64,000 nucleotides of DNA from Candidatus Woesebacteria bacterium GW2011_GWB1_33_22 (GCA_000989765.1 LBOW01000002.1:70843-134842), one strand, 5' to 3'. Shown: positions 2,413 through 57,566, counted from the first letter of the stretch. The notes: a model not told the origin generated them from the sequence alone. Made by a program: numbers and translations.

Positions 2413-3391
2413 CCTTTTTGATATATTCTTTAATGCTTTGTCCTTCTCTTGTTTGTAATATATAGGCTCCGCCAGAACTTTTAGCTGAAACTAATACATT
2501 TTCTTCACTTAGGTTAATATAGGAAACAGAATATTCAAGTGGATTGCCAATTTCTTGCAAAATATCATTAACCATTTCTACTGTTAGATTAGTATTTACA
2601 AAAGAAAATGCAGAAGCAAAACTTTTGACATTTGCTTTTTGAAGTATTGCTTTTAATATTTCAAACTGCCGTCTGGAACGATCAAAGTCACTACTCCCAT
2701 GCCTACTTCTGGCGTATTTTAAAGCTTCCTCACCATTCATCTGGTGAGGTCCAACTCCATAACTAATTGATTCATATCTACATGTAAATTGTTTTTCAAG
2801 TTCAAAACCTGAATATTTTTGATGAAATTCTTCTACCTTTTCAGGCGAAAAACCACATAGTTCGTTTTCAAGCCCCTTAACAGGATAAAAATTGTCAGTA
2901 TATGCTTTTTTAACATCTACTGTTATCCCACCTATAGAATTAATCATCTTCATAAACGAAATAAAATCAATAGATATAAAGTTAGATATTGAAAGACCAG
3001 TAACATCAACCACTGCATCTTTAAGTGATGGATCAGCGTTTATCTTATGTCCCGAAAACCAAAGATCTCTGGGAATTGAAATTAGATTTACCTTTTTATC
3101 AGTCACATTAACCGACACAATTATAATAGCATCCATTAAACCTCCACCTGAATGTCCTGCACCCCCATGACCAGTCAGTAAAACATTTAAAAATTTAGCA
3201 TTTTTTGTAGTAACCCTATCTTCCACTATTATTTCAGGTAGGGGATAAGAGTTTGTTTGGATGCTGGCAATTGATGATTGATTATTAGTTACAAACTTTG
3301 TATAGCCATAAGTCCCAAGATACATACCAATTAAAAAAACAGGTAAAACTAAAAGAAATACAAAATTAGGACTTTCTAATAATTTTTTCAT
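2405..3391 (-). CDS. LytR-CpsA-Psr (LCP) family cell-envelope phosphotransferase
   Basis: N-terminal TM plus LCP-domain motifs (SIPRDLW, GGxxxxxxTVxxxxGI, ALxYARSRH). Confidence 0.75.
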
Positions 3392-5598
3392 TTACCCCTC
3401 CCGTGGAACTGTTCATGGATTTCATGAAGTTGTTTATTGGTAACATGTGTATAAATCTGAGTAGTTGAAATGTTTTTATGTCCCAACATTTCTTGAACGC
3501 TTCTTATATCGGCTCCTGCATTAAGTAAATCTGTCGCGTATGAGTTATGACTTACAATTCCATCAGTAAATAAATTTTCAGTATCTAAGACAGTAAAATC
3601 AAAAACATTATATCTAAATGAAGGTAGTTTTTTGATTTTTTTAACCTTTAACCATTTATAATTTTTGGATCTATATAATTGCTTTAATAAGTTGAGTTTT
3701 TGATCTTTATAACCAAAATTTTCAATCTGTCTAATAAATTTAATTAGGGTAGATCTTAACGGAACAATCTTATCTAAATATCGATTTGATTTTATATTTT
3801 CATTCTTTTGCATAGCATATCTAAATCCTATTTTTCCATTCTCTTCTAAATCAATAAATATAGACTTCAGGACCGATTGAGCTGGTATTTTTTCTTCTTC
3901 CCAAATTGAATTATCTAATAATGTTTTACCTTTTAAGGTTGGGATTAATTTAATAAACAATTTCTGATCATTTTTACTAATAATTTGGAGGGTGTAAAAC
4001 AAGTGCCTGAATAATTTACCTTGAGGTAATTTGACCGTTCTGTCTCTCTCCATCAAATGAGCATCTATACCAAGCCTCAAAAGTAACATTTGGATATCTT
4101 TCAAAAAATCCTTAGACGAGGAAAAGATTCTTGGCGCTCCATTAGAATTTCCTTCAGCATCGTAAATTCCAGCTATAAATTCTTTTATTTCATCAATAGT
4201 TGAATTCATTATCAAATAGGGCACACGTCTATCTTTTGAATGTTCATGCAAATTTAAATCCTTCTGCAAAAAATTTACAAATTGATCTGAATAAAAATTC
4301 AATCTAAACGAATTTGTTTTTGGATTGGGTTCAATTCTAGCTTCAGCATTTAATAAATCTCTGATAATTTTTTGATATAACTCAAGAATTGTTTTATTCT
4401 TATCGTGGATAATTACCCCTCTTCGAACTTTACTAATTACACCATCTCCTAAAATATATCCGACTAATCTGGATATCTTTGGATCTATGAATTTTAAACC
4501 TTTTATTTTAACTCTCCGAATTCCTAACACATAATCGTTTACTTTTAAATTTTTGACAAATATTTCGTTAATTCCATTACTTCTTAAGGTAAACAGCCTA
4601 TGGTTATTAGAACAAACTAATTCGTATCCATCAGCCCAAACTGAGTAAAGATCCGATAAATGAGATTCCTTACCAGAAATTTTAGTTTTAGTTATCTTAT
4701 CATTCACCAGATTTAATCCCAAAATGTCTGATTGGTTTTGATAATATAAATTTCGAGCTGAAATAATTTGATCTTTTAAAAATATCCTTGTTTCAGGATG
4801 AACACAGTGGCGGATCCCGTGAGGCGTAATTTCAACAGGTAATTTAATTTTGTGTACATATTTTTTAACCAATCGTTCCACTGATCGGGGAGTGAGGCGC
4901 ATTTTTTCGCCTGCCTGCGCAGGCAGGTCAGGAGTATCAATAAACTTTCCTTTATGTCGTATAAACAAAGGTTTAAAATGATCTTTTCTTTCATTTAAAT
5001 ATTTTTTTAAGTAATCAGCAGAACGAGAAGAAAGAAAAACAACTCTTGCTCTTCCTCCCTTACCAGTAATTCCAAATTCACGTCTTTCAAAATCTATTTT
5101 TTCAATATTAAGGTTTGTTAGTTCAGATACACGTAAACCTGTTGAAAATAAAACTTCCAAAATTGCTTTGTCTCTAATCCCTTGAATGTCTGACATTGTT
5201 GGAGCATTAAGAAGTCTATCTACTTGTTCACCATTTAAAAATTTAACTTGTCTGTCTGGAATTTTAGGTAGTTCAATTTTATCAGGTGCCATAACTTGAT
5301 AGTCATTCCTTATTAGCCATTTTAAAAAGGATCGGAGAGCAATAGCGTGATATCCTTGAGTCTTCTTTCCCAAACCAAGTTTAGCGAGGTATGCCCTAAA
5401 GTCATGAATCGCGTCCTGTTTTATGTCTTCTAATTTAGCATTTGCCTTTTTAGCATTTAACCAGATTGATAATCTGGTTAGGTAATGTTTGTAATTTCTA
5501 ATTGTAAGAGGGGAGCAACCTTTTTCGACAGATAAATAATCCAAAAACTCATCTATTTTTTTTGCTATCTCTGTTATTTTTCCTTGGGCATCTAACAT
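3388..5598 (-). CDS. XerC/XerD-like tyrosine recombinase interrupted by a ~421 aa intein
   Basis: N-terminal SAM-like domain; catalytic Arg (LRVSEL), HGIRH, and a C-extein [34 protein letters not shown] carrying the catalytic Tyr. A Cys...HN|S intein with two LAGLIDADG motifs sits between RH and S. Confidence 0.8.
3544..4806 (-). mobile_element. intein with LAGLIDADG homing-endonuclease domain inside the tyrosine recombinase
   Basis: Begins Cys (after HGIRH) and ends His-Asn followed by Ser+1. Motifs [12 protein letters not shown] and [12 protein letters not shown]. Confidence 0.75.
4910..4927. repeat. palindromic mini-element CCTGCCTGCGCAGGCAGG (family B) inside the recombinase gene
   Basis: Perfect 18-nt palindrome; encodes PAQAGE in-frame. 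Confidence 0.8.
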
Positions 5599-26187: not shown

Positions 26188-27450
26188 CTAGATACTAGTT
26201 ACTAGTTTTATAGCTTCCTCAAGTTGTTCGTCAACAGTGGTCTCTGAATTATCCTCAACTTTAATATCTGGAGTTATCCCTTTTTCATTTACCCACACGC
26301 CCTTCGGCGTGAGCCATTTTGCAGTTGTAATATGAAGTGAACTTCCTTTTTCAAGTTGTAGTGGTTCTTGAATTGTTCCTTTACCAAAAGTAGTCTCCCC
26401 TATTAATTTATAACCCTTAACTTCACTTAATGCACCAGCAAGTATTTCGGAGGCAGAAGCACTACCTGCATTAATTAAGATTACAACTTTTTTATTTGTA
26501 AAGTTTCCAATCCTATCTGTTTTAAAATCATTTTTGACCAAACCCCTGTCTTCAATAACAACAACTGAGCCTTTTGTTAAAAACTCTCCAGCAATATCAA
26601 CCGAGCCCTGTAAATATCCTCCAGGATTATTTCTAAGATCCAAAATTATCCCTTCACATTTAGCATTTAGCATTTGGCATTTAGCATTGATGGTAGCAAC
26701 TGCTTTGTTCCATTCAGTATCAGTATCTGCACCAAATTTCAAAAGTTTAATGTGCGCAATTGTGTCATTTTCTCCTGCCTGCGCAGGTGAGTCTATAAAT
26801 TTTACAATGACCGAAGGCACGTCAAGTTTGGCTCTTTCTACAGTAACAGTAATTGGTTCATTTGACCCATCTCTTAAAAGAAGTAATGTTACCTTAGTAT
26901 TTGCCTTCCCTCTAATAATTTTAACGGCATCGCTAAGTGTAATTCCTGAGGTTCCTGTATCAATCTTTTTAACTTCATCTTTAATGCCAACAATAAAATC
27001 CCCAGCTTTAATTCCAGCCTTTTCTGCTGGTGAACCAGGCAGTGGAGCAATAACTGCTAAATTCTTACCCTTAAACCCTATTTGAATTCCAACACCTTCA
27101 AATGAACCAGAGAGATCTTCTTCAATAACTTTATTTTCTTCAGGGGGAAGAAAAGCTGTGTATGGATCGCCCAAGGAAGCCACCATACCAGAAATTGCAC
27201 CATAGACCATTTTTGATATGTTTACTTTAGACTTGTCATAGTATGAAGAATCTAGTGTATCCCAAACTCTCCAAAAAAGAGAAAAATCTACATCACTTCT
27301 ATTTTTGGGAATTTCTCTTGAAATTTTAACTTTTGGAAAACTAGCGCTTTCTAATCTAAATCCATTAAAACCTAAAAAATAACCTGAAGAAAAAATTACT
27401 CCAATTAAAATAACAACAAGAATTGTTTTACGAACGGCAGGAAAATTCAT
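26188..27450 (-). CDS. ctpA: S41-family C-terminal processing peptidase with PDZ domain
   Basis: PDZ domain plus S41 motifs (LDLRNNPGG, TASASE). Confidence 0.85.
   Translation of the reverse strand: MNFPAVRKTILVVILIGVIFSSGYFLGFNGFRLESASFPKVKISREIPKNRSDVDFSLFWRVWDTLDSSYYDKSKVNISKMVYGAISGMVASLGDPYTAFLPPEENKVIEEDLSGSFEGVGIQIGFKGKNLAVIAPLPGSPAEKAGIKAGDFIVGIKDEVKKIDTGTSGITLSDAVKIIRGKANTKVTLLLLRDGSNEPITVTVERAKLDVPSVIVKFIDSPAQAGENDTIAHIKLLKFGADTDTEWNKAVATINAKCQMLNAKCEGIILDLRNNPGGYLQGSVDIAGEFLTKGSVVVIEDRGLVKNDFKTDRIGNFTNKKVVILINAGSASASEILAGALSEVKGYKLIGETTFGKGTIQEPLQLEKGSSLHITTAKWLTPKGVWVNEKGITPDIKVEDNSETTVDEQLEEAIKLVTSI
26774..26787. repeat. family B mini-element variant (CCTGCCTGCGCAGG) inside the S41 peptidase gene
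   Basis: Encodes SPAQAGE in-frame. Confidence 0.75.
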
Positions 27451-28444: not shown

Positions 28445-29383
28445 CTAAGAACCAATCTTAAATTCAATAACGTCTCCATCACAAACTATATAGTTTCTTC
28501 CTTCACTTCTTACTTTACCCAATTCTCTATTTTGTTTCCAGCCTCCATTACTAACAAAGTCATTAAAATCACAAACATCAGCTTTAATAAATTTATTACC
28601 AAAGTCAGTATGAATTACTTGGCTTGCCCTGACGGCTGGCCAGCCAGACGGAAGGGTCCAAGCCCTAACTTCTTTTTCTCCTGCTGTTAGAAAGGTTATT
28701 AAACCCAATGTCTTAAATGCTCTTTGAATTAGTTTATCCAAAGCAGAAGAATCGGTTCCCAATTCTTTCAAATATTCTTTTTGTTCTTCTACGGGTAATT
28801 CAACAAGTTCAGCTTCAATTTTTGCACAAACAGCAACAACTTGATCTTTTTCTAATCCAAGCTCTTCTGCATATTTAGATTCTAGATTCTGACTACTAGC
28901 CACCTCTCCCTCGTCAATGTTTAAAACAACCAAGAAAGGCTTATTTTTAAAAGATGGGGCATCTGGATGCTCTAAATCTGCAAGATCTAATTCTAATTTA
29001 AGTATTTCTAGGTCAGACTTGGGGTCTTTTACTCCTTGCTTGATTATGTCTGGATCTGAAAAGGCACGTAAAACAAAACAAATAGCCGTCACCTCTCTAA
29101 TATGATTTAAGAATTTATTCCCCAAACCCTCGCCTTTACTGGCTCCTTCAATTAAACCTGCAATATCAACAAACTCACAAGTTGCAGGAACAATGGGAGC
29201 ATTATTATAAATTGGACTTAATTTATTTAATCTTTCATCTGGAACTGGAACCACTCCTATATTTGGTTCTATCGTAGCAAATGGAAAATTAGCAACATAT
29301 GCTTGTTGCTTTTTTAAAAGAGCATTAAACAGTGTGGACTTGCCCACGTTTGGTAACCCCACTATCCCTACAGATAAACTCAT
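28445..29383 (-). CDS. ychF: ribosome-binding ATPase YchF (Obg-family GTPase)
   Basis: GLPNVGKSTLFNAL G1 motif and a TGS-like C-terminus. Confidence 0.85.
   Translation of the reverse strand: MSLSVGIVGLPNVGKSTLFNALLKKQQAYVANFPFATIEPNIGVVPVPDERLNKLSPIYNNAPIVPATCEFVDIAGLIEGASKGEGLGNKFLNHIREVTAICFVLRAFSDPDIIKQGVKDPKSDLEILKLELDLADLEHPDAPSFKNKPFLVVLNIDEGEVASSQNLESKYAEELGLEKDQVVAVCAKIEAELVELPVEEQKEYLKELGTDSSALDKLIQRAFKTLGLITFLTAGEKEVRAWTLPSGWPAVRASQVIHTDFGNKFIKADVCDFNDFVSNGGWKQNRELGKVRSEGRNYIVCDGDVIEFKIGS
28619..28668. repeat. GC-rich imperfect palindrome inside ychF (CTTGGCTTGCCCTGACGGCTGGCCAGCCAGACGGAAGGGTCCAAGCC)
   Basis: Contains the perfect core GGCTGGCCAGCC and flanking GGCTTG/CAAGCC arms. 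Encodes ...TLPSGWPAVRAS... Confidence 0.65.
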
Positions 29384-32596: not shown

Positions 32597-33153
32597 TAAA
32601 TAATTTTTATTCTTCCACCTCCAAAGGTTACTTCAAAAGTGTTTAATGATTTTACCTGAACTCGATAAAGATTATTGTTTGCCCAAAAATTTAAACTTCC
32701 CGAATAACTTTGGGTTAGATCTGCTTTATTTGAAATAGATACTTCACTCCCATTTACAGCAATCCCATGAGTTACATCATATAGTCGGGCATAAACCGTT
32801 CCATTACCATGTGCCACTTTTAAAGAAGCCGACCATGTTAAATAAGGTGTCTTGCCATAATCCGCTGTATTTAAATAGAACTCAGTTCCAGGAGCATCGT
32901 ACCAAGAAGATGATGTGGTTGTTATCGGTCCTGTTATTGGAATATAGGTAGTTTGGTTCGTTTTAGTAACTGTCACTGTTGGAACGGGTGTTATAAAAAC
33001 TGTTTTAATAACTTCTTCAACTTTAGTTTCAGCAGGAGCGGAGCTTGGAGTAACATAAACAATTTCTTTTGGTTTTTGATAAAAAAGTAACCAAAAAAAG
33101 CCACCAATTAGTAAAATTGTTAATACAAAATTAATATAAACTATTATTTTCAT
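32593..33153 (-). CDS. hypothetical secreted protein with N-terminal TM
   Basis: Signal-anchor followed by a beta-rich sequence. Confidence 0.4.
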   Translation of the reverse strand: MKIIVYINFVLTILLIGGFFWLLFYQKPKEIVYVTPSSAPAETKVEEVIKTVFITPVPTVTVTKTNQTTYIPITGPITTTSSSWYDAPGTEFYLNTADYGKTPYLTWSASLKVAHGNGTVYARLYDVTHGIAVNGSEVSISNKADLTQSYSGSLNFWANNNLYRVQVKSLNTFEVTFGGGRIKIIY

Positions 33154-34391
33154 TTAAGATTTAATCCTAAAACTTCATCAAAAGAAACTGCTAGATCATA
33201 TTTATCTCTTGATGGTATATTTGATTTTAACACCTCAAACATTACAGCCATGGCCTTGCTTGTATTTAAGTCGTCGTTAATCGCTTGATTAAACTTATCT
33301 CTAAATTCTAATATTTTATTATTCTTTTCTTCAGAAAGTATTGTTCTAGCCGTAGTCTGTAGACTGTAGACTGTTTGTTGTAATCGTTTCAAACCTTTTG
33401 AAGCACCATCTAGTGCTTGCCATGTAAAATTCATTGGCTTTTTATAGTGTGCCCCTAAGTATAAATACCGTAGAGCAAGAGGATCAAAACCTCTCTTCAC
33501 AATATCTGATATCGTGTAAAAATTACCCAATGATTTACTCATTTTAGTCCCATCTACTGTCAAAAATGCAGAATGTATCCAAAATTTACTAAAAGGTTTC
33601 TTACCAGTTGCACCCTCACTTTGAGCAATTTCATTAGGGTGATGAATTGATAAATGATCTTCTCCTCCTGTATGAATATCTATTTGTTCACCTAAATATT
33701 TCATACTCATTGCAGAACACTCAATATGCCACCCGGGAAACCCATCTCCCCAAGGACTTTCCCAATGCATAGTATGGTTCACAAAGCTACCTACTCTTTT
33801 AAACCATAATGCGAAATCCGCATTATTTCTTTTGTTAGGATCAGTTTTTACTTCGTCCCTAACAGCTATACGTTTTTCACTAATTTTTTGACCAAGCATT
33901 TTTCCATAATCTGTAAACTTTGAGACGTTGAAGTAAACAGCCTCTTCTGTGTCGTATGCATATCCATTTTCAAACAATTTTTCAATTAACTTTATTTGTT
34001 CTTTAATGTGATCTGTAGCTTTACAAATTATGGTTGGGCGCAGAAAATTAAGTGCATCCATAGACTCGTAAAAACTTTTAGTAAAATACTCTGCGACTTC
34101 CCAAACTGTTTTACCTTGCTTTTTAGCCCCTTTTTCGAGTTTATCCTCACCGTCATCAGCATCAGATACTAAATGCCCTACATCTGTAACATTTTGAACA
34201 TGATTAACTTTGTAACCATTAAATTCTAAAGTTCTTCTTAAAATGTCATCCATCAAAAATTTTCGGCCGTGTCCAATATGTGCATAATCATAGACAGTTG
34301 GTCCGCAAGTATACAATTTAATTGGCCTGCCCTGAGCAGAGCCGAAGGGTTCTTTCTTTTTGGTTAACGAATTATATAAATATAAATCCAT
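33150..34391 (-). CDS. cysS: cysteinyl-tRNA synthetase
   Basis: HIGH (HIGHGR) and KMSKS (KMSKSLGN) motifs; the Zn-binding Cys in YTCGPTVYD. Confidence 0.9.
34325..34352. repeat. family C-like mini-element (CCCTGAGCAGAGCCGAAGGG) inside cysS
   Basis: Encodes GSAQGRP in-frame near the N-terminus. Confidence 0.65.
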
Positions 34392-37369: not shown

Positions 37370-37743
37370 TCTAGATGATGAACACCTAATAAATGCAACG
37401 CAGAATGTTCCACTAGCTCTAGTACTTTTTCTTCGATTAATTTATTTTCCATACTTGCTTCTTTAACAACTACAGGAAAACAAACAACAATTTCACCTAA
37501 ATTAATTTTATCACTCGGAAATTTCATAGATTCAGAATTGACAAACGAAAAGACATTGTGTAATTTTGTATCTTTGTAATATTTCTTGGCTAAAATTTGC
37601 ATTTCTTTTTCATTAACAAAAGAAACAATTACTTCTGAATCCGAAACAATTCCATGCTCAATAAAAAACTTTCTCAAAAAACTTTTTACTTTAACTGCAC
37701 TAATTGGATAATTACTTTGTTTTGCTATTTTAACGTCTATCAT
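37366..37743 (-). CDS. ybeY: endoribonuclease YbeY
   Basis: HSALHLLGVHH metal-binding motif. Confidence 0.8.
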   Translation of the reverse strand: MIDVKIAKQSNYPISAVKVKSFLRKFFIEHGIVSDSEVIVSFVNEKEMQILAKKYYKDTKLHNVFSFVNSESMKFPSDKINLGEIVVCFPVVVKEASMENKLIEEKVLELVEHSALHLLGVHHLE

Positions 37744-38192
37744 GACAGTTTTGACCTCACAATTTCGGCTACTTTAGATCCGTCAACTCCAGGAGATTTT
37801 AATTTAACCTCTGCAATTACTCGACCTAAATCCTGTATTGTCTTTGCGTTTAACTGGCTTATTGAATCACTGATTAACTGATTTACTTCTTCATCACTTA
37901 ATTCTGGTGGTAAAAATTCTTGTAAAATATTAAGTTCTTCTTGTTCTAGGGTAATCCTTTCTTCAATACCATCATGTTTACCCTGAGCTTGCCAAAGGGC
38001 TTCTATTGCATCTTTTCTTTTTCTTGCTTCCTTTCTTATAACATTTTGTTCATCTGTTTCTGTTAATTCTTTTTGTAATTTAATTTTTTCATAATTAAAT
38101 TCGCTAGATAACATACGAAGTGTTGAAAGTCTAACACTATCATGTACCTTCATAGCCTCCCCTATTAGTTTTGTAATTTTTTGGCTAATCAT
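37740..38192 (-). CDS. GatB/YqeY domain protein
   Basis: YqeY-family helical protein pattern. Confidence 0.7.
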   Translation of the reverse strand: MISQKITKLIGEAMKVHDSVRLSTLRMLSSEFNYEKIKLQKELTETDEQNVIRKEARKRKDAIEALWQAQGKHDGIEERITLEQEELNILQEFLPPELSDEEVNQLISDSISQLNAKTIQDLGRVIAEVKLKSPGVDGSKVAEIVRSKLS

Positions 38193-38500: not shown

Positions 38501-39712
38501 TTATTTTATTTTTTTAATAACTTCCTCGAAATCTAGAAGTTCTGTTTTGTCTGAAGTGCGTTCTTTGTATTCAATTTCACCTGCCTGCGCAGACAGGTCT
38601 CCAGTTTTATCAGACACAACAAGTCTTACTGGAATACCGATTAAATCAGCATCATTAAACTTTTGCCCCGCAGGAACGTCTCTGTCATCAAACAAAACAT
38701 CAATTCCAGCGTTTTTAAGTTTTTCATAAATATCTTCACCCTTACCACTTAACCCAATCAAATGAACCTGAAAAGGACTAATCTCTTTGTTCCAAATTAT
38801 ACCTTTGTTATCATGACTCACCTCTACCCAAGTACCCATAACCCTGGTTGGTCCAATTCCATAACTTCCAAACCAGATTGGTTTTTTCTTCCCGTCTTCA
38901 TCAGTAAAATAAGCTCTCATTCTCTCTGCATACCAAGTTCCTAATGGAAAAATATTCCCCACCTCAATTGCTTTTGAACTTTTGTAATCTTTTTTATCCC
39001 CTTTCAACACTTCTTCATTAATTGCTTCTGGATCACCATCTCTCCAATAAATTGTATCTTCTCCAGCATCCGAAAGAACTTGAAACTCATGGGTAAACTT
39101 GTCAGTAAATACACCACCAGAAGCTTTGGTCACTTTAAAATTAAATCCTAATCTTCTAAAAATTTTCGAATATGCATCTTTTACTTTTTCGTAGTACTCC
39201 ATCAAGTTTTCTTCAGTTGTATGAGCTGAATATAAATCTTTCATCATAAATTCACGTCCACGTAATATCCCAGATTTTGCGCGTAGTTCATTTCTAAACT
39301 TAGTCGAAAAATGATAGACGGAAACAGGTAAATCTTTATAACTAGTTATGTTTTTACGAAGAAGATCCATCACAATTTCCTCATGTGTAAATGAAAGTGC
39401 ATATTCCTTCTGCCTTGGATCCGAAAGTTTATACATAATATCATTGGCCTTATCCCACCTACCAGTTTCATTCCAAATTTCTTTTGGATGCAAAAGTGGC
39501 ATTAACATTTCCTGTGCCCCTATAGCATTCATTTCTTCCCTAATTATCTGATTAATTTTTGTAACAACTTTCCAGCCCATAGGCAATAGGGTCCAGCTCC
39601 CAGCCATTAATTGATCCATAAAACCCGCCCGGACCAAAAGTTTATGATTTATTGATTCAGCGTCTTTAGGCGCTTCTTTTCTTGTTTTAGGAAATAGTGA
39701 TGATTGCTTCAT
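38501..39712 (-). CDS. proS: prolyl-tRNA synthetase, short archaeal/eukaryote-like class II form
   Basis: Class II motifs and an anticodon-binding domain. Confidence 0.85.
   Translation of the reverse strand: MKQSSLFPKTRKEAPKDAESINHKLLVRAGFMDQLMAGSWTLLPMGWKVVTKINQIIREEMNAIGAQEMLMPLLHPKEIWNETGRWDKANDIMYKLSDPRQKEYALSFTHEEIVMDLLRKNITSYKDLPVSVYHFSTKFRNELRAKSGILRGREFMMKDLYSAHTTEENLMEYYEKVKDAYSKIFRRLGFNFKVTKASGGVFTDKFTHEFQVLSDAGEDTIYWRDGDPEAINEEVLKGDKKDYKSSKAIEVGNIFPLGTWYAERMRAYFTDEDGKKKPIWFGSYGIGPTRVMGTWVEVSHDNKGIIWNKEISPFQVHLIGLSGKGEDIYEKLKNAGIDVLFDDRDVPAGQKFNDADLIGIPVRLVVSDKTGDLSAQAGEIEYKERTSDKTELLDFEEVIKKIK
38580..38597. repeat. family B mini-element variant (CCTGCCTGCGCAGACAGG) inside proS
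   Basis: Encodes SAQAGE in-frame. Confidence 0.75.
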
Positions 39713-42787: not shown

Positions 42788-43309
42788 TTAGAGTTTAACA
42801 AGTGCTTGTTTGTTTATTTTAATATTTTCCAGTGCAGACTTCCCCGCAGCATGAGCCAAGTAAATTGCAGTTTTAGCATCAGAAATTGCATTTTTATTCC
42901 CAATTTTACTAATTCTATATGCCAATTTTTCTAAACTTTGTGAGATCTTTCTAACTTCCATTGGAACCTCAATTGCATATTTTAGAGTTTTAGTTATTTC
43001 TTGTTTTCTCTTTTTATCTGTAGACGGTAGTCTATAAGCTATAAGCACCTTATCATACGCTTTCTTATCTTCCTCTGCCAATTTGGTTAGTTTCTCTTTT
43101 AATTCGACAACATTTTTATGGATCCTAATAATGTCTTTTTTATTTTTTTCATATTTTTCTTTACCCAAAGTTAAATTACAAACCATTTCAACTAAAGATG
43201 CCGCAAAAGCTCCTGAAAGTGCAGCCACAACTCCACCTCCAGGTGTTGGATTTTTACTCCCCAACTCTTTTTGAAATTGTTTTAAGGTTTTGGAATTGAT
43301 TACTCCCAT
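42788..43309 (-). CDS. formiminotetrahydrofolate cyclodeaminase (FTCD C-terminal domain) as a stand-alone ORF
   Basis: PTPGGGVVAALSGAFAASL motif. Confidence 0.75.
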   Translation of the reverse strand: MGVINSKTLKQFQKELGSKNPTPGGGVVAALSGAFAASLVEMVCNLTLGKEKYEKNKKDIIRIHKNVVELKEKLTKLAEEDKKAYDKVLIAYRLPSTDKKRKQEITKTLKYAIEVPMEVRKISQSLEKLAYRISKIGNKNAISDAKTAIYLAHAAGKSALENIKINKQALVKL

Positions 43310-44187
43310 AGTCTCTTTTCTAATACTTGATCACCTTTAAAGGTTGAACCTTTAAAGGTTGTTCGAATAGCTTTTACAAGCGCTTCAAGCGGAATCATAC
43401 CATAAATTTCTGAAGATTTGATCCCAACTCCTAAGTTTTTAGCTTCTTTTTCTATCTCTCTGTATGCTTTATCAAAGTTTGTTATTTCAAAATCAACCAA
43501 ATTCATAGAAACTTGAGCCATCCCATCAACTTCAAAACCTAATGCTTTAACAGCTTTAAGTCCCCCATCTTTTTCTCTTATCTTTTTTGCAATTTCTTTT
43601 GCAATATTAACATCATTCGTTTCCAAATTAACATTATAGGCAACCAAATATTTCCTGGCCCCAATTACAACCGCTCCCGCAGTTGGATGTGGTTTATCTG
43701 GTCCATAATCAGGCTTACGCATAACTTTTTTAATCCCTTCATATTCTCCAACCCTGACATCTGCCAAGTTTCTATATTCCTCTTTTTTAGCTGAAGCTTC
43801 ATACATAAAAACTGGAATTTTAAGTTCGTCTGCAACTTTTTTGGCTAGTTTATTTGAAAGTTTTACACATTCTTCCATCGAAACGCCTGAGACAGGAACA
43901 AAGGGAACGACGTCAACGGCTCCAATTCTTGGATGCTCGCCAACATGGGAATTCATGTCTATTAACTTTGAAGCTACTTTAATTGATTCAAAAACAGAAT
44001 TCAAAACATCCTCAGGAGAACCTACTATAGTAAATAGCATTCTATTATGTGAAGCATTGTACTCAAGTTCAAACACCTTAACTGGTTTACCCTGAGCTTG
44101 CCGAAGGGAAGCATCAAAAATCGCATTTATAATTTTTTTATTTTTGCCTTCACTAAAATTCGGCACACACTCAACAATCTTTTGCAT
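43300..44187 (-). CDS. ftcD: glutamate formimidoyltransferase (FTCD N-terminal domain)
   Basis: IVECVPNFSEGKN start; contains the inserted RQAQGKP mini-element. Confidence 0.8.
   Translation of the reverse strand: MQKIVECVPNFSEGKNKKIINAIFDASLRQAQGKPVKVFELEYNASHNRMLFTIVGSPEDVLNSVFESIKVASKLIDMNSHVGEHPRIGAVDVVPFVPVSGVSMEECVKLSNKLAKKVADELKIPVFMYEASAKKEEYRNLADVRVGEYEGIKKVMRKPDYGPDKPHPTAGAVVIGARKYLVAYNVNLETNDVNIAKEIAKKIREKDGGLKAVKALGFEVDGMAQVSMNLVDFEITNFDKAYREIEKEAKNLGVGIKSSEIYGMIPLEALVKAIRTTFKGSTFKGDQVLEKRLWE
44089..44112. repeat. family C mini-element (ACCCTGAGCTTGCCGAAGGGAAGC) inside ftcD
   Basis: Encodes LRQAQGKP in-frame. Confidence 0.75.
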
Positions 44188-47007: not shown

Positions 47008-47452
47008 ATACTTTTTGGAAATAATGCAAACCGTATCCAAGAGAGGAACTTGTGATAGAGGTCATGCTTCTTGTGTCTTTGTAAAGAATAAACAAATTTT
47101 AGTAACTGGATACGCAGGATCACCTGTTGGTTTTCCACATTGTGATGAAATTGGACACCAACTAAAAAAGATAATTCACGAGGACGGAACGATTACTGAA
47201 CACTGTGTCAGAACAGTTCATGCTGAACAAAATGCAATTTGCCAAGCTGCAAAAAGAGGTGTATCTCTTGAAGGATCTACGGTCTATGTAAACATGACCC
47301 CTTGTAGAACTTGTGCAATGTTACTTATAAATACAGGCATTAAAAGAGTAATAGCCCAAAACAAATATCATGCAGGAGCTGAAAGTGAAGCAATGTTTAA
47401 AATAGCAAAAATTAAATTGGAATTTATTTCTTCTGAAACTGTAAGATATTAG
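46970..47452 (+). CDS. dCMP deaminase (ComEB-type)
   Basis: Zinc motifs HAEQNA and PCRTCA; N-terminal RPSWDKYF. Confidence 0.85.
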   Translation: MKKLKKVRPSWDKYFLEIMQTVSKRGTCDRGHASCVFVKNKQILVTGYAGSPVGFPHCDEIGHQLKKIIHEDGTITEHCVRTVHAEQNAICQAAKRGVSLEGSTVYVNMTPCRTCAMLLINTGIKRVIAQNKYHAGAESEAMFKIAKIKLEFISSETVRY

Positions 47453-49400
47453 GTTTCTTCCAACTAGCAAATTTACAATCGGGGTAACGGCTACAGCCGT
47501 AAAACTTGCCTTTTTTTGATTTCTTGACAACAATCTCGCCAGTTTTACAATCTGGACATTTGATACCCACTTTATCCAAAAACTTTTCAGTATGTTTACA
47601 CTCTGGGAAAGTAGAGCAACTAATAAACTTGCCGAATCTTCCAACTCGTATAACTAGCTCCCCATCTTTACAGTCAGGACATTTTTTACCTAACTTTTCT
47701 GTTTCTATTTTTACTCTTTCTGCTGTTTTTTCAACAGATTTTAATTTCTTTTCAAAGGGAGTCCAAAACTTCTTCATTTCAGTTTCCCATTTTATTTTGC
47801 CGAGAGCTATGTTATCCAAATCCTCCTCCATTTCCGCTGTAAAACCGAAATCTAGTTCTATTGGAAAGTTTTTAACTAAAAATTCTGTTACAGCAAAACC
47901 AATTGTTGTAGGAATAAATACTTTATCAATTTTTTCCACATAACTTCTAATTTGAATTGTTGTAATAATTGGAGCATATGTAGAAGGTCTTCCAATTCCC
48001 AATTTTTCCAATGTCTTAATTAAAGATGCCTCATTATATCTTGGAGGAGCTAAAGTGAATTTTTGATCTGCCCAAATTCGTACTTTGTCTAGTTTTTCGT
48101 CTTTGTTAACTTCAGGAAGTAAAACTATTTCTGTATCAATTGGAAACAAAACTCTCCAACCGTCAAATTTCATTATTTGCCCACTAGCACGTAATGAATA
48201 TTGAATTAGTTTACCCTGAGCTTGCCGAAGGGCTTCTACATCAATTGTTGTTTCGTTGTAAATTGCGGGATTCATTTGACAAGACATAAATCTTTTCCAA
48301 ATTAATTCATATAGTTTCTGTTCACTTTGTTCCAATTTTAAATTTTGATTTTTGACTTTTGAATTTACGACCGTAGGTCGTATCGCTTCATGTGCTTCCT
48401 GCGCCGATTTACTGTGAGTTTTGTAAAAATGTGGCTTTTCTGGAAGATATTCTTTTCCATACTCTTTTTCAATAAATCCTCTTGCAGTGTTAACAGCATC
48501 AAGTGAAAGATTTAAAGAATCCGTTCTATGGTAGGTAATTAAACCCTCTTCATATAACTTTTGAGCAACACTCATTGTCTTTTTAGCACTCCAACCAAAA
48601 AGTCTTGCACCAGCTTGTGTCAATGTTGAAGTTGTAAAAGGAGGATAAGGACTTTTTCTAACTTCTCTTTTCTTAACATCAGATACTTTATATTCTGCCT
48701 TTTCTAAATCAGCAAGTATCTTATCCGCAGTAGTTTTATCATGTATCTCTTGTTTAATTAACTGGACTACAAATTTTGCATTTTGATTTTTGCATTTTAA
48801 ATTTGCATATATTTCCCAATATTCTTCTGGCTTAAAAGCCTTTATTTCCATTTCGCGGTCAACTATTAGTCTTACGGCAACTGACTGAACTCTACCAGCA
48901 GACAACCCTCTTCTTACTTTTTTCCAAAGAAGAGGTGAGAGTTTATAACCCACCAACCTATCCAGTACTCTTCTTGAGATTTGAGCATCAACAAGATTCC
49001 TATTTATAACTGTTGGGTTACTAAGTGCATGTTCTACTGCTTGTTTAGTTATTTCATGGAAAGTTATGCGTTTAATTTTTGATTTTTGATTTTTGATTTT
49101 TAAATTTGAACTGATCACGTCCTCGACGTGAGCTGCGATAGCTTCCCCTTCACGGTCAGGATCTGTAGCTATAAAAATCTGCTCTGCGCTTTTGGCTTTT
49201 TGCTTTAAGCTTTTAATAACTGCTTTTTTCTTTTCTATTTCTTGATAATCTGGTTTAAAATCATGTTCTATATCAATACTTAATTTACTTTTAGGTAAGT
49301 CTTTAATATGGCCACGGGTCGAATCCACTTCATAATCACTACCCAAAAACTTGGATAGCGTATTTGCCTTTGTTGGACTTTCAACTATTATTAGTTTCAT
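47424..49400 (-). CDS. topA: DNA topoisomerase I with C-terminal zinc ribbons
   Basis: Toprim N-terminus (IVESPTKA), catalytic Tyr region and C4 zinc fingers. Confidence 0.9.
   Translation of the reverse strand: MKLIIVESPTKANTLSKFLGSDYEVDSTRGHIKDLPKSKLSIDIEHDFKPDYQEIEKKKAVIKSLKQKAKSAEQIFIATDPDREGEAIAAHVEDVISSNLKIKNQKSKIKRITFHEITKQAVEHALSNPTVINRNLVDAQISRRVLDRLVGYKLSPLLWKKVRRGLSAGRVQSVAVRLIVDREMEIKAFKPEEYWEIYANLKCKNQNAKFVVQLIKQEIHDKTTADKILADLEKAEYKVSDVKKREVRKSPYPPFTTSTLTQAGARLFGWSAKKTMSVAQKLYEEGLITYHRTDSLNLSLDAVNTARGFIEKEYGKEYLPEKPHFYKTHSKSAQEAHEAIRPTVVNSKVKNQNLKLEQSEQKLYELIWKRFMSCQMNPAIYNETTIDVEALRQAQGKLIQYSLRASGQIMKFDGWRVLFPIDTEIVLLPEVNKDEKLDKVRIWADQKFTLAPPRYNEASLIKTLEKLGIGRPSTYAPIITTIQIRSYVEKIDKVFIPTTIGFAVTEFLVKNFPIELDFGFTAEMEEDLDNIALGKIKWETEMKKFWTPFEKKLKSVEKTAERVKIETEKLGKKCPDCKDGELVIRVGRFGKFISCSTFPECKHTEKFLDKVGIKCPDCKTGEIVVKKSKKGKFYGCSRYPDCKFASWKKPNILQFQKK
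48213..48236. repeat. family C mini-element (ACCCTGAGCTTGCCGAAGGGCTTC) inside topA
   Basis: Encodes LRQAQGKL in-frame; 20/20 nt core identical to the ftcD copy. Confidence 0.8.
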
Positions 49401-56320: not shown

Positions 56321-56674
56321 ATGACACAAGACCAAAAGTTTGATCTCGAAGAAAGAACAGCTAAATTTGGTGAATCAATAATTGAATTTTGTTTAAAAAT
56401 TAAAAAGAACGAAATTACAAGCCCATTAATTACACAGCTTGTTAAATCATCCACTAGTGTTGGTGCAAATTATTGTGAAGCTGACGATGCAGAAAGTGGA
56501 AGAGACTTTAAACATAAAATTGGCATATGTAAAAAGGAAGCTCGAGAATCAAAACACTTTTTGAGAATGTTTGCAAAAACTAATCCAGAATTTACTGATC
56601 AAATTAGGAATTTATGGCAAGAGGCTAAAGAACTTCATTTGATTTTTAATACAATTTATAGGAAAGTTAAATAA
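56321..56674 (+). CDS. four-helix-bundle protein (23S rRNA IVS-encoded protein family, TIGR02436)
   Basis: SVGANYCEADDAES...ICKKEARESKHFLRM. Confidence 0.7.
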   Translation: MTQDQKFDLEERTAKFGESIIEFCLKIKKNEITSPLITQLVKSSTSVGANYCEADDAESGRDFKHKIGICKKEARESKHFLRMFAKTNPEFTDQIRNLWQEAKELHLIFNTIYRKVK

Positions 56675-56732
56675 TTATGTCATTTATTAGATCAATTAGT
56701 ATAATTAGTACAATTAGGAATTGGAGCATCAT

Positions 56733-57566
56733 ATGCGACTGATTTTTTTTGGTACACCTGATTATGTTTTACCAGTTTTAGATATTTTGAATAAGTATCA
56801 CGAGGTTGTTGCGGTAGTTACACAACCCCCAAAACCTGTAGGCAGAGAGAAAATTATCGAATATTCTTCCGTTGATAAATGGGCTTTCAAGAAAAAAATT
56901 GATAGGTTTTTTGATTTTACCGATTTACCAGAAGCTGACCTTGGCATCTGTGCAGCTTTTGGAATGATAATTCCAAAAGAAATTTTAAACCATTTCAAAT
57001 TTGGAATTTTAAATATTCACCCATCAATCTTACCTAAATATAGAGGTGCATCCCCAATTCAGTCAGCAATTTCCAATCTTGATACAGAGACTGGTGTCAC
57101 AATTATTAAAATGGATGAAAAAATGGACCATGGACCGATTGTATCTTCATTCAAATGTGATATTTTACCTACTGACACTTTTGAAACCTTAAGAATTCGA
57201 TTATTTGAACAAGCCTCTGAATTTCTAATTAACCTAATTCCTAATTATTCTAAAAATAAAATTAACTTGAAACCGCAGGATCATGACAAAGCGACTTTTT
57301 GCAAAATTGTGAGTAAACAAGATGGATTTGTCAATTTAGAAAAAGACAATCCACAAGTAATTGAGGCAAAACTAAGAGCTTATTTCCCTTGGCCAGGGGT
57401 GTGGACCCTTCTTCGCCAAGACTCATCAGGGCAAGCTAAACGGTTAAAAATTCTAAAATGTCATTTAGAAAACAATGAATTAGTTTTAGATGAAGTTCAA
57501 CTTGAGGGAAAAAATCCTGTATCTTGGAAACAATTCAAATCTGCCTATCCAGAATCTAGATTCTAG
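56733..57566 (+). CDS. fmt: methionyl-tRNA formyltransferase
   Basis: MRLIFFGTPDY and the formyltransferase motif NIHPSILPKYRG. Confidence 0.9.
   Translation: MRLIFFGTPDYVLPVLDILNKYHEVVAVVTQPPKPVGREKIIEYSSVDKWAFKKKIDRFFDFTDLPEADLGICAAFGMIIPKEILNHFKFGILNIHPSILPKYRGASPIQSAISNLDTETGVTIIKMDEKMDHGPIVSSFKCDILPTDTFETLRIRLFEQASEFLINLIPNYSKNKINLKPQDHDKATFCKIVSKQDGFVNLEKDNPQVIEAKLRAYFPWPGVWTLLRQDSSGQAKRLKILKCHLENNELVLDEVQLEGKNPVSWKQFKSAYPESRF

Follow-up and report, generated by a model that had tools for sequence, protein, structure and literature searches.

The window analysed here is a stretch of 64,000 nucleotides from Candidatus Woesebacteria bacterium GW2011_GWB1_33_22 (GCA_000989765.1, LBOW01000002.1:70843-134842), with a G+C content of 33%. 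Its ftcD gene holds a short GC-rich sequence that recurs within other protein-coding genes of the window. We refer to this element as family C, the name given to it in an earlier note made from the sequence alone, which had reported it in ftcD, topA and cysS, together with related hairpins in ychF and in an S41 peptidase gene. The DNA of the window was 100% identical to contigs of three independent sample sets (ENA, JGI, and Logan), and its YchF protein is identical to one assigned by NCBI to Candidatus Woesebacteria bacterium GWC2_33_12 (Microgenomates, candidate phyla radiation (CPR)/Patescibacteria). The population is present in groundwater time series, and its FtcD protein was found in 53 collection blocks. 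The host genes and the copies that they carry are given below, with positions counted from the first nucleotide of the window.

Host genes
43300..44187, minus strand: ftcD, glutamate formimidoyltransferase (FTCD_N/FTCD domains)
47424..49400, minus strand: topA, DNA topoisomerase I
37740..38192, minus strand: yqeY, YqeY-like protein
33150..34391, minus strand: cysS, cysteinyl-tRNA synthetase
28445..29383, minus strand: ychF, YchF ATPase
56721..57566, plus strand: fmt, methionyl-tRNA formyltransferase

Copies of the element
44085..44108, plus strand: family C in ftcD, GTTTACCCTGAGCTTGCCGAAGGG; read on the minus strand as S-LRQAQGKP; 24 nt for 12 ancestral, net +12 nt
48209..48238, plus strand: family C in topA; read as A-LRQAQGKLI-Q; 27 nt for about 3, net +24 nt against the empty site
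37976..38005, plus strand: family C in yqeY; read as LWQAQGKHD; one core mismatch; net +15 nt
34322..34349, plus strand: variant in cysS, TTGGCCTG-CCCTGAGCAGAGCCGAAGGG; read as PFGSAQGRP; net 0 or -3 nt
28619..28656, plus strand: long variant in ychF, TTGGCTTG-CCCTGAC-GGCTGGCCAGCC-AGACGGAAGGG; encodes LPSGWPAVRASQ, a 13-codon cassette of the same length as the usual INEGITAQEASG
57406..57439, minus strand: long variant in fmt, TTAGCTTG-CCCTGATGAGTCTTGGCGAAGAAGGG on the minus strand; coding strand WT-LLRQDSSGQA-KRLKI; absent from the earlier note

Copies of family C in the window

The sequence GTTTACCCTGAGCTTGCCGAAGGG was identical in ftcD and topA. Its 19-mer core, CCCTGAGCTTGCCGAAGGG, was exact at 44090-44108 and 48214-48232, as had been claimed for these two genes, and the identity was found to reach 24 nt (GTTTAC...GGG; 44085-44108 and 48209-48232). 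Both copies translate to LRQAQGK on the minus strand. A third copy, missed by the earlier reader, lies in yqeY (37976-37999, with the 19-mer starting at 37981); it has one mismatch in the core, encodes LWQAQGK and matches the topA sequence at 31 of 32 nt. The cysS variant, said to encode SAQGRP, was also present (CCCTGAGCAGAGCCGAAGGG, 34330-34349), as was the palindrome described in ychF (28619-28668). A search with the termini pattern CCCTGA-N6-24-GAAGGG added ychF (28627-28656) and fmt (57406-57431, minus strand) as copies. The cysS, ychF, and fmt variants share these termini and also a 5' extension, TTGGCYTG or TTAGCTTG, and the suggested relatedness of the ychF palindrome is borne out in this way. 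All six copies are in frame, contain no stop codon and run antisense to the host gene, including that of fmt, which is on the other strand. The unit is 20-38 nt long in the window, and four of the six copies cluster within 14 kb.

The 19-mer occurred three times at up to one mismatch, compared with an expectation of zero, and shuffled versions of the window gave no match to it at up to three mismatches. For the termini pattern, five matches were found where 0.06 were expected. Family C is a genuine repeated mini-element inside reading frames, above random expectation in frequency as the earlier note had anticipated, and the copies in yqeY and fmt make the repetition larger than had been noticed. 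As far as alignment of the copies can tell, these identities show that family C has been copied within this Woesebacteria genome.

Comparison with related Woesebacteria

The relatives used for comparison were 36 metagenome loci around rpsB, with S2 identities to the window of 71-95% in 34 of them and 38% in two. The closest sampled relative is the population of loci L124 and L286, whose YchF (P0123) is the protein assigned by NCBI to Woesebacteria GW2011_GWA1_33_30; its identity with the window is 95% for S2, 85% for FtcD, and 80% for TopA. When ftcD, topA, yqeY, and cysS were aligned codon by codon against the 36 loci, none of the four short copies was found in any of them. The lineage specificity expected for ftcD, topA, and cysS was therefore confirmed by the ortholog alignments, and it extends to the new yqeY copy.

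In ftcD, 24 nt (CTTCGGCAAGCTCAGGGTAAACCA) stand where the relatives have 12. Similarly, yqeY has 27 nt in place of 12, and topA 27 nt in place of about 3 in the empty state (...GCA GAC CAA TAT...). The length of cysS is the same as in the relatives or shorter by one codon. No target-site duplication was seen at any junction in these codon-level alignments; ancestral bases were lost instead. As a few ancestral bases have been replaced by 24-27 nt, the copies are overwriting patches and not clean insertions. Structure alignments gave three additional residues relative to pig FTCD, five relative to YqeY, and two relative to a CysRS. On these alignments the short copies are lineage-specific patches, in which 24-27 new bases overwrote 3-12 ancestral ones; DASLRQAQGKPVK is an example of the predicted peptide across a patch junction. 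The proposal that the element had been inserted into genes thus stands in so far as the sequence is new. It needs amendment in that ancestral codons are overwritten, with a net change of -3 to +24 nt, and in that ychF shows an exact replacement of 13 codons.

Other lineages have hairpins of their own. Three relatives carry a different hairpin, TCCCACATCGGGAGTGGGA, in cysS at the site of the window variant. The hairpin TCCCACATCGGGAGTGGG(A/C), which encodes NPTSGVG, was found at L124:2474 and 18750, and at 17891 in L137 and L138; in cysS it sits exactly at the family C site of the window, and in L124 it is present also in topA, at another position. An insertion census of the window against the closest relative covered about 9,100 aligned residues, some sites being counted twice through overlapping antisense open reading frames (ORFs). 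Among the insertions of at least three residues listed for the window lineage are three patches of family C, as well as another palindrome, CTGCGCAGGCAGG, in two copies, which encode SPAQAGE and LSAQAGE. The other window-side insertions are AT-rich, and several resemble low-complexity duplications. The earlier description of GC islands as pervasive is upheld to the extent of these five among the listed insertions, in a listing that repeats some sites. That the dominant mini-elements differ between lineages is as expected for mobile DNA.

The TopA loop

In 120 TopA homologs compared, the segment TTIDVxA-(D/G/S)-xYLLRASGQ has an ancestral two-residue turn, and about half of the homologs listed carry 1-18 extra residues of many kinds in this loop. 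LRQAQGK was present in none of the 120. Two of the homologs (L160 and L161) read RHPELAEGW and RHPEPIEG at this place. The loop DNA, CATCCTGAGCTTGCCGAAGGATG and CATCCTGAGCCTATCGAAGGATC, has the opposite orientation to the window copy; RHPELAEGW and RHPEPIEG correspond to CGACATCCTGAGCTTGCCGAAGGATGG and CATCCTGAGCCTATCGAAGGATC, that is, to the 17-nt core of the window in reverse. The stem of these copies has changed from CCCT/AGGG to CATCCT/AGGATG. Since the same core occurs in opposite orientation at one loop, the unit is DNA and not a peptide. Read at the nucleotide level, the opposite orientations rule out a peptide-level explanation and show that acquisitions at this one site were independent. 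In other Woesebacteria the aligned loci show separate copies, of both orientations, that entered the same TopA loop.

In an AlphaFold2 model of the window TopA (71 sequences, pLDDT 79.5), residues 391-400 (LRQAQGKLIQ) extend a beta-hairpin with strands 379-394 and 397-412 and a turn at Q395-G396; the insert block has pLDDT values of 86-90. The insert is thus predicted to sit at a tolerant site, the tip of a beta-hairpin. It may be noted that TTGGCAAGTTCG in the topA of L124 resembles TTCGGCAAGCTC, over a very short match, and might be a decayed copy.

Two further observations were made in this loop. In L137 and L138 it contains overlapping short direct repeats, CATCCTA twice and ACATCCT three times (GCCATCCTACATCCTACATCCTACATCCTG), and in L147 a 12-nt insert lies between copies of a 9-nt direct repeat (ACTAATCAC).

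Hairpins in ychF, fmt and the S41 peptidase gene

The palindrome region of ychF aligns without gaps to solved YchF structures and is consequently not an insertion. Among 120 YchF homologs, the 13 residues between EVRAWT and IHTDF exist as discrete alternatives. The common one is the AT-rich INEGITAQEASGV. Three are GC-rich, namely LPSGWPAVRASQ (the window), LRRGETALSAS, and IRLGTTSLMA, and their DNA reads CCC-TTCCG...GTCA-GGG, CAC-TTCGG...CTCA-GTG, and CCA-TTCGA...GCTCA-TGG. To judge from these strings, the cassettes are family C termini with compensatory stems (CCC/GGG, CAC/GTG, and CCA/TGG). L282, with a YchF of only 70% identity, has the window cassette again (34 of 39 nt), and relatives with a YchF 79-83% identical have other cassettes. 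The pattern fits repeated replacement or recombination, and the mode is same-length replacement. There is turnover at fixed sites: the hairpin cassette of cysS varies from lineage to lineage, and so does that of ychF.

The long variants of ychF and fmt both lie directly after the ancestral host codons TGG ACC, for Trp-Thr (28650-28662 and 57400-57412). This could reflect a target preference, microhomology, or coincidence.

The S41 peptidase hairpin of the earlier note, CACGCC-CTTC-GGCGTG, was found at 26296-26311, one base from the position given, with a perfect 6-bp stem. It encodes LTPKGVW, which is conserved in Bacillus subtilis CtpB and identical in the closest relative. The relative and the window differ in codons TTA/CTC, ACA/ACG, CCA/CCG, and GGT/GGC, all synonymous and all ending in G or C in the window. 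With the residues conserved and only synonymous differences present, this hairpin is not an insertion, and it was rejected as a member of family C. Its coding strand contains GCCGAAGGGC, the 3' half of family C, as a 10-nt match on the opposite strand, which may be due to chance.

Stem and loop

RNA folding was carried out for each copy on both strands. The short core gave z values of -0.6 to +0.35 relative to shuffled sequence. For covariation, 224 distinct sequences of the form TGAGC-N4-CGAA with 7 nt on either side were taken from fetched loci, the searched 19-mer being excluded, and a random 150 were aligned. The three pairs adjoining the loop were paired in 83-87% of the 150 variants and showed 35-73 double (compensatory) changes each. 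The covariation score was 0.454, compared with 0.197 +/- 0.013 in shuffles (0 of 500 reached it) and at most 0.22 in slid controls. The free loop positions were biased to YTGY, with the G conserved in at least 90%. TGAGC and CGAA are invariant here because the search pattern required them, and only the stem and the N4 positions count as independent evidence.

On this covariation, the family C unit is a predicted short variable stem that closes a conserved loop of 11-13 nt, T-GAGC-N4-CGA-A. A variable stem with a conserved loop is the architecture to be expected of a hairpin that a protein might recognise. The earlier claim that the short core forms a hairpin has therefore changed its footing: folding energy, with z near 0, gives it nothing, and covariation of the stem in other genomes speaks for it.

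No curated Rfam family was matched by the hairpin. At the gathering threshold, nothing but tRNAs and one signal recognition particle RNA was obtained from the window and 10 loci; at an E-value threshold, the full proteobacterial element gave only sub-threshold matches to generic long hairpins (miRNA precursors).

Occurrence in other phyla and in viruses

The pattern CCCTGAGCTTGYCGAAGGG was found at no fewer than 120 loci, that is at least 120, in a collection with one genome per species, where our rough estimate under uniform composition is about ten for 596 Gb. The matches listed span Proteobacteria, Bacteroidota, Chloroflexota, Acidobacteriota, Actinomycetota, Cyanobacteria, Nitrospirota, Planctomycetota, and several CPR groups, and include cultured isolates. 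At least 120 viral contigs of IMG/VR contain the 19-mer (L162-L281), and phages may carry the hairpin between hosts. Compared across these loci, the hairpin family shows dispersal over many phyla and phage contigs with compensatory stem changes. Viral copies are sometimes in tandem, as in L199, where three copies are 23 nt apart.

In Proteobacteria the motif usually forms one of the two arms of an inverted pair of some 80 nt, the arm ends being CCC...GGG and GGC...GCC. In non-CPR genomes with a G+C content of up to 50% it is mostly intergenic, and the few copies within long ORFs read LRQAQG or HPELVEG. All intragenic copies examined read LRQAQG, PELAEG, or PELVEG, except for the cysS variant, which keeps the same frame only over AQG. 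The use of the same two frames outside the CPR as in Woesebacteria suggests selection on the encoded peptide.

A literature search with the nucleotide strings and the encoded peptides found no relevant paper, and nothing relevant was retrieved for CPR or Woesebacteria with repeat terms. The supplements of a survey of repetitive extragenic palindromic (REP) sequences (PMC3733652) contained neither CCTGAGC nor TCGAAGG. What goes beyond the routine in these results is a near-identical core across phyla and phages, with a covarying stem and without a curated family, and the repeated hits on the same loops in essential proteins of the CPR.

Origin of the copies

We lean towards the explanation that family C is a REP-like, ultra-small mobile hairpin that selection has filtered to tolerant loops and two reading frames. 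Since very little of a CPR genome is intergenic, most landings would be in genes. Selection would then retain only in-frame copies in surface loops that tolerate indels, where the inserted residues would simply be translated, and only two hydrophilic frames would survive, LRQAQG on one strand and PELAEG or PELVEG on the other. Copying could proceed by a single-strand hairpin transaction of an HUH/Y1 enzyme similar to REP-associated tyrosine transposases (RAYT), or another copy could be the source for microhomology-guided templated repair or gene conversion. We make no choice between these routes. The replacement pattern, the clustering of copies, the cassette turnover, and short junction matches (TGGAC and GCAAGC already at ychF, GAAGC at yqeY and topA) suggest templated repair or gene conversion.

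The same genome has a RAYT-like Y1/HUH transposase gene (L287:3658-4293), about 4.0-4.7 kb before position 1 of the window. It is a single copy between gyrB and a pyrophosphatase gene. The protein matches Pfam Y1_Tnp and contains an HFH motif and YIHLNP; its best NCBIfam match is REP-associated tyrosine transposase, at 38.8 bits, under the cut-off of 80. The gene is flanked by an inverted hairpin, ACAAGGACCAACCTTGT, with one copy upstream and two downstream, in a REPtron-like layout. It points to a candidate class of enzyme for the copying of family C.

Several results weigh against a mobile hairpin. The link of the RAYT-like gene to family C was rejected, as its flanking hairpin is a different one with no match in the window, and within the roughly 82 kb of the genome searched ACAAGGACCAACCTTGT is not dispersed. 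Among 140 ORFs adjoining the motif in other phyla there was no enrichment of transposases: no family had more than two members, all those listed were housekeeping genes, and Y1_Tnp was not among the 25 commonest families. No copying enzyme is linked to family C. No intergenic 'master' copy was seen within the window. Presence/absence polymorphism within the species was not observed across the three independent samples; these being 100% identical, the mobility of family C is deduced from comparison between lineages only. The hairpin claim for the short core had to be dropped as far as energy is concerned, its folding being no better than that of shuffles. The near-identical cassette of L282 fits recombination between lineages as well as independent insertion. 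The antisense orientation of all six copies could point to a strand-specific function, and it may be explained by selection on the encoded peptide.

This orientation, kept although fmt is on the other strand, is among the points in favour of a functional DNA or RNA signal, such as a binding site, a competence uptake signal, or a strand-specific single-stranded DNA hairpin, which benefit or molecular drive would favour and coding loops would merely accommodate. A conserved loop with a covarying stem across phyla is typical of a recognised structure; moreover, the S41 hairpin with GCCGAAGGGC arose purely by synonymous changes to G or C, and the ychF cassettes keep their exact length. We nevertheless regard such a signal as unlikely. 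The density is low: the 64 kb of the window contain 6 copies, and close relatives, over about 350 kb, have none at the four sites of the short copies that were examined. The ftcD, yqeY, and topA copies gained 12-24 nt instead of arising by substitution. The TopA loop of other lineages holds both orientations, the hairpins that sister lineages have at these sites are unrelated ones, and the motif, unlike known uptake sequences, is not species-specific. Equal-length discrete cassettes with a patchy distribution, as in ychF, would also result if homologous recombination with DNA of other Woesebacteria, taken up by competence, swapped variable segments between conserved flanks. The window cassette in L282, with other cassettes in relatives whose YchF is closer, agrees with such circulating alleles, and the flanks encoding EVRAWT and IHTDF are nearly identical in DNA and could act as homology arms. 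Imported alleles leave unexplained the identity of 24-31 nt among three unrelated genes of one genome and the same core in unrelated phyla and phages, and LRQAQGK is found in none of the TopA homologs; as a general account we consider them improbable.

Yeast mitochondrial genomes, which are AT-rich, have GC-rich palindromic clusters in their coding regions, and this analogy raises the idea that the inserts are untranslated, being bypassed by the ribosome like the 'byps' of Magnusiomyces mitochondria (PMC8811140) or otherwise removed. We think this very improbable, since none of the six copies contains a stop or leaves the frame, and the TopA insert is modelled as a confident beta-hairpin extension. 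In addition, two of the six frames of the GTTTA-type 24-mer have a stop and no copy uses them, as expected if the copies are translated. More improbable still is chance or convergent codon usage, by which unrelated GC-rich codon runs would come to look alike. By a rough estimate, seven consecutive codons ending in G or C are expected about once per window, and chance is plausible only for the S41 hairpin with its conserved residues. For the six copies it is refuted by the shuffles, by the expectation for the termini, and by exact identity over 24-31 nt that includes positions without coding constraint. A CRISPR origin was rejected, as there were no arrays.

Returning to the mobile hairpin, a broader claim can be framed: that the variable stem with its T-GAGC-YTGY-CGA-A loop is an undescribed mobile element of about 20-30 nt shared by phyla and phages, that it propagates by templated patch replacement and not by classical transposition, and that it is a regular source of loop variation in essential CPR proteins, with recurrent hits in both orientations. 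We put this forward tentatively and on balance doubt it in its full extent. The earlier observation itself is confirmed as real, and its interpretation is partly supported.

If family C is indeed mobile, some of the tiniest and most gene-dense bacterial genomes would still carry selfish DNA, hidden in essential genes as 4-8 extra residues, and part of the loop-length variation of CPR proteins would be element-driven and not gradual. The copies would mark recent lineage splits and would explain GC-rich islands and odd peptides (LRQAQG, PELVEG, and SLSKG) that recur in metagenomic protein databases; such patches should not be taken for functional motifs. A 19-mer found across phyla, with a covarying stem and no Rfam family, raises the question of which enzyme or host factor recognises the hairpin.

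Comparison with known elements

In its manner of working, family C resembles intragenic REPs, Rickettsia palindromic elements (RPEs), small dispersed repeats (SDRs), and yeast mitochondrial GC clusters. It departs from the defining features of each known class in size (RPEs), in tag and cognate RAYT (REPs), in target duplication (GC clusters and MITEs, the miniature inverted-repeat transposable elements), or in density, species specificity, and origin by substitution (uptake sequences).

Like REPs and REPINs (PMC3733652, PMC3116915), family C is short, imperfectly palindromic and variable in its stem; it is dispersed, mostly intergenic in other phyla, often in inverted pairs in Proteobacteria, occasionally inside genes of replication or repair proteins, and has no target duplication. 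The 20-40 bp stem-loop typical of REPs is seen in its covariation, energy alone not being significant. REPs have many, mostly extragenic copies; the window has 6 in 64 kb, all intragenic. In place of the unpaired GTAG or CGTC tag (PMC3733652), the window copies are preceded by GTTTA or GCYTG, and some copies in other phyla have (C/T)GTCA. A cognate RAYT is flanked by the same repeat, whereas in the part of the genome searched it is ACAAGGACCAACCTTGT that flanks the gene at L287:3658-4293. Conservation lies in the loop of 11-13 nt in family C and in the stem in REPs. A REP family usually stays within one species or genus, whereas the 19-mer crosses phyla.

RPEs are about 100-150 bp long, add 30-50 residues, and are confined to Rickettsia (PMC10969869). 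They resemble family C as selfish palindromic DNA of a small AT-rich genome that lies in frame in unrelated housekeeping genes, at places which the protein fold can accommodate, and family C is likewise in frame in conserved genes at structurally tolerant positions. The family C unit is only 20-38 nt and adds 0-8 residues, its core occurs in many phyla, and its copies replace sequence and do not purely insert.

SDRs of Nostocaceae, 21-27 nt in length, are reported only from that family (PMC5861425). They share with family C the size class, the deduction of mobility from presence or absence at orthologous sites, conserved genes included, and the lack of a known encoded enzyme (as cited in PMC3116915 and PMC5861425). 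Family C patches, with 24-27 nt and missing from all relatives, agree with such a repeat. The two differ in phylum. The SDR sequences presumably differ from family C as well.

In yeast mitochondria, GC clusters are GC-rich palindromes that make var1 polymorphic by in-frame insertion and are held to be mobile and recombination hotspots; their terminal AG or TAG repeats are read as target duplications, and some are translationally bypassed (PMC8811140). Family C is also an in-frame GC-rich palindrome in an AT-rich genome. Its junctions have no terminal AG or TAG duplication, and it is bacterial, whereas the clusters are organellar and eukaryotic. MITEs have terminal inverted repeats and target-site duplications; at family C junctions ancestral bases are lost, and a MITE was rejected for want of both features.

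The DNA uptake sequences of Neisseria (DUS) and Pasteurellaceae (USS) occur about once per kb, are species-specific, and arise by substitution. They resemble family C as short motifs that coding regions tolerate, in preferred frames and where residues are poorly conserved. An uptake sequence was rejected on the low density, the cross-phylum motif, and the net gains of 12 to 24 nt in ftcD, yqeY, and topA.

Other repeats and genes of the window

The palindrome family found in the insertion census has three copies in the window:
4910-4932: CTGCGCAGGCAGG, in frame in the XerC-intein gene
26774-26789: CTGCGCAGGCAGG, in frame in the S41 peptidase gene
38580-38597: CTGCGCAGGCAGG, in frame in a class II tRNA synthetase gene

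These copies always read as (L/S)(P/S)AQAGE. Those in the S41 peptidase and synthetase genes are missing from the closest relative, and three further copies were found in L138. The XerC-intein gene (3388-5598, minus strand) encodes a XerC/XerD-type tyrosine recombinase split by an intein that contains a LAGLIDADG homing endonuclease domain, and bears a palindrome, CCTGCCTGCGCAGGCAGG, at 4907-4932.

AT-rich mini-insertions encoding KCQMLNAKC and KCKNQNAKF were observed at 26653-26667 (S41 peptidase) and 48780-48797 (topA), and a similar KCQMPNAK was present in the TopA hairpin loop of another Woesebacteria lineage (P0088). These may form a separate AT-rich repeat family. Finally, a free-standing gene of the 23S rRNA intervening-sequence protein family (PF05635) lies at 56321-56674 on the plus strand, adjoining def and fmt.

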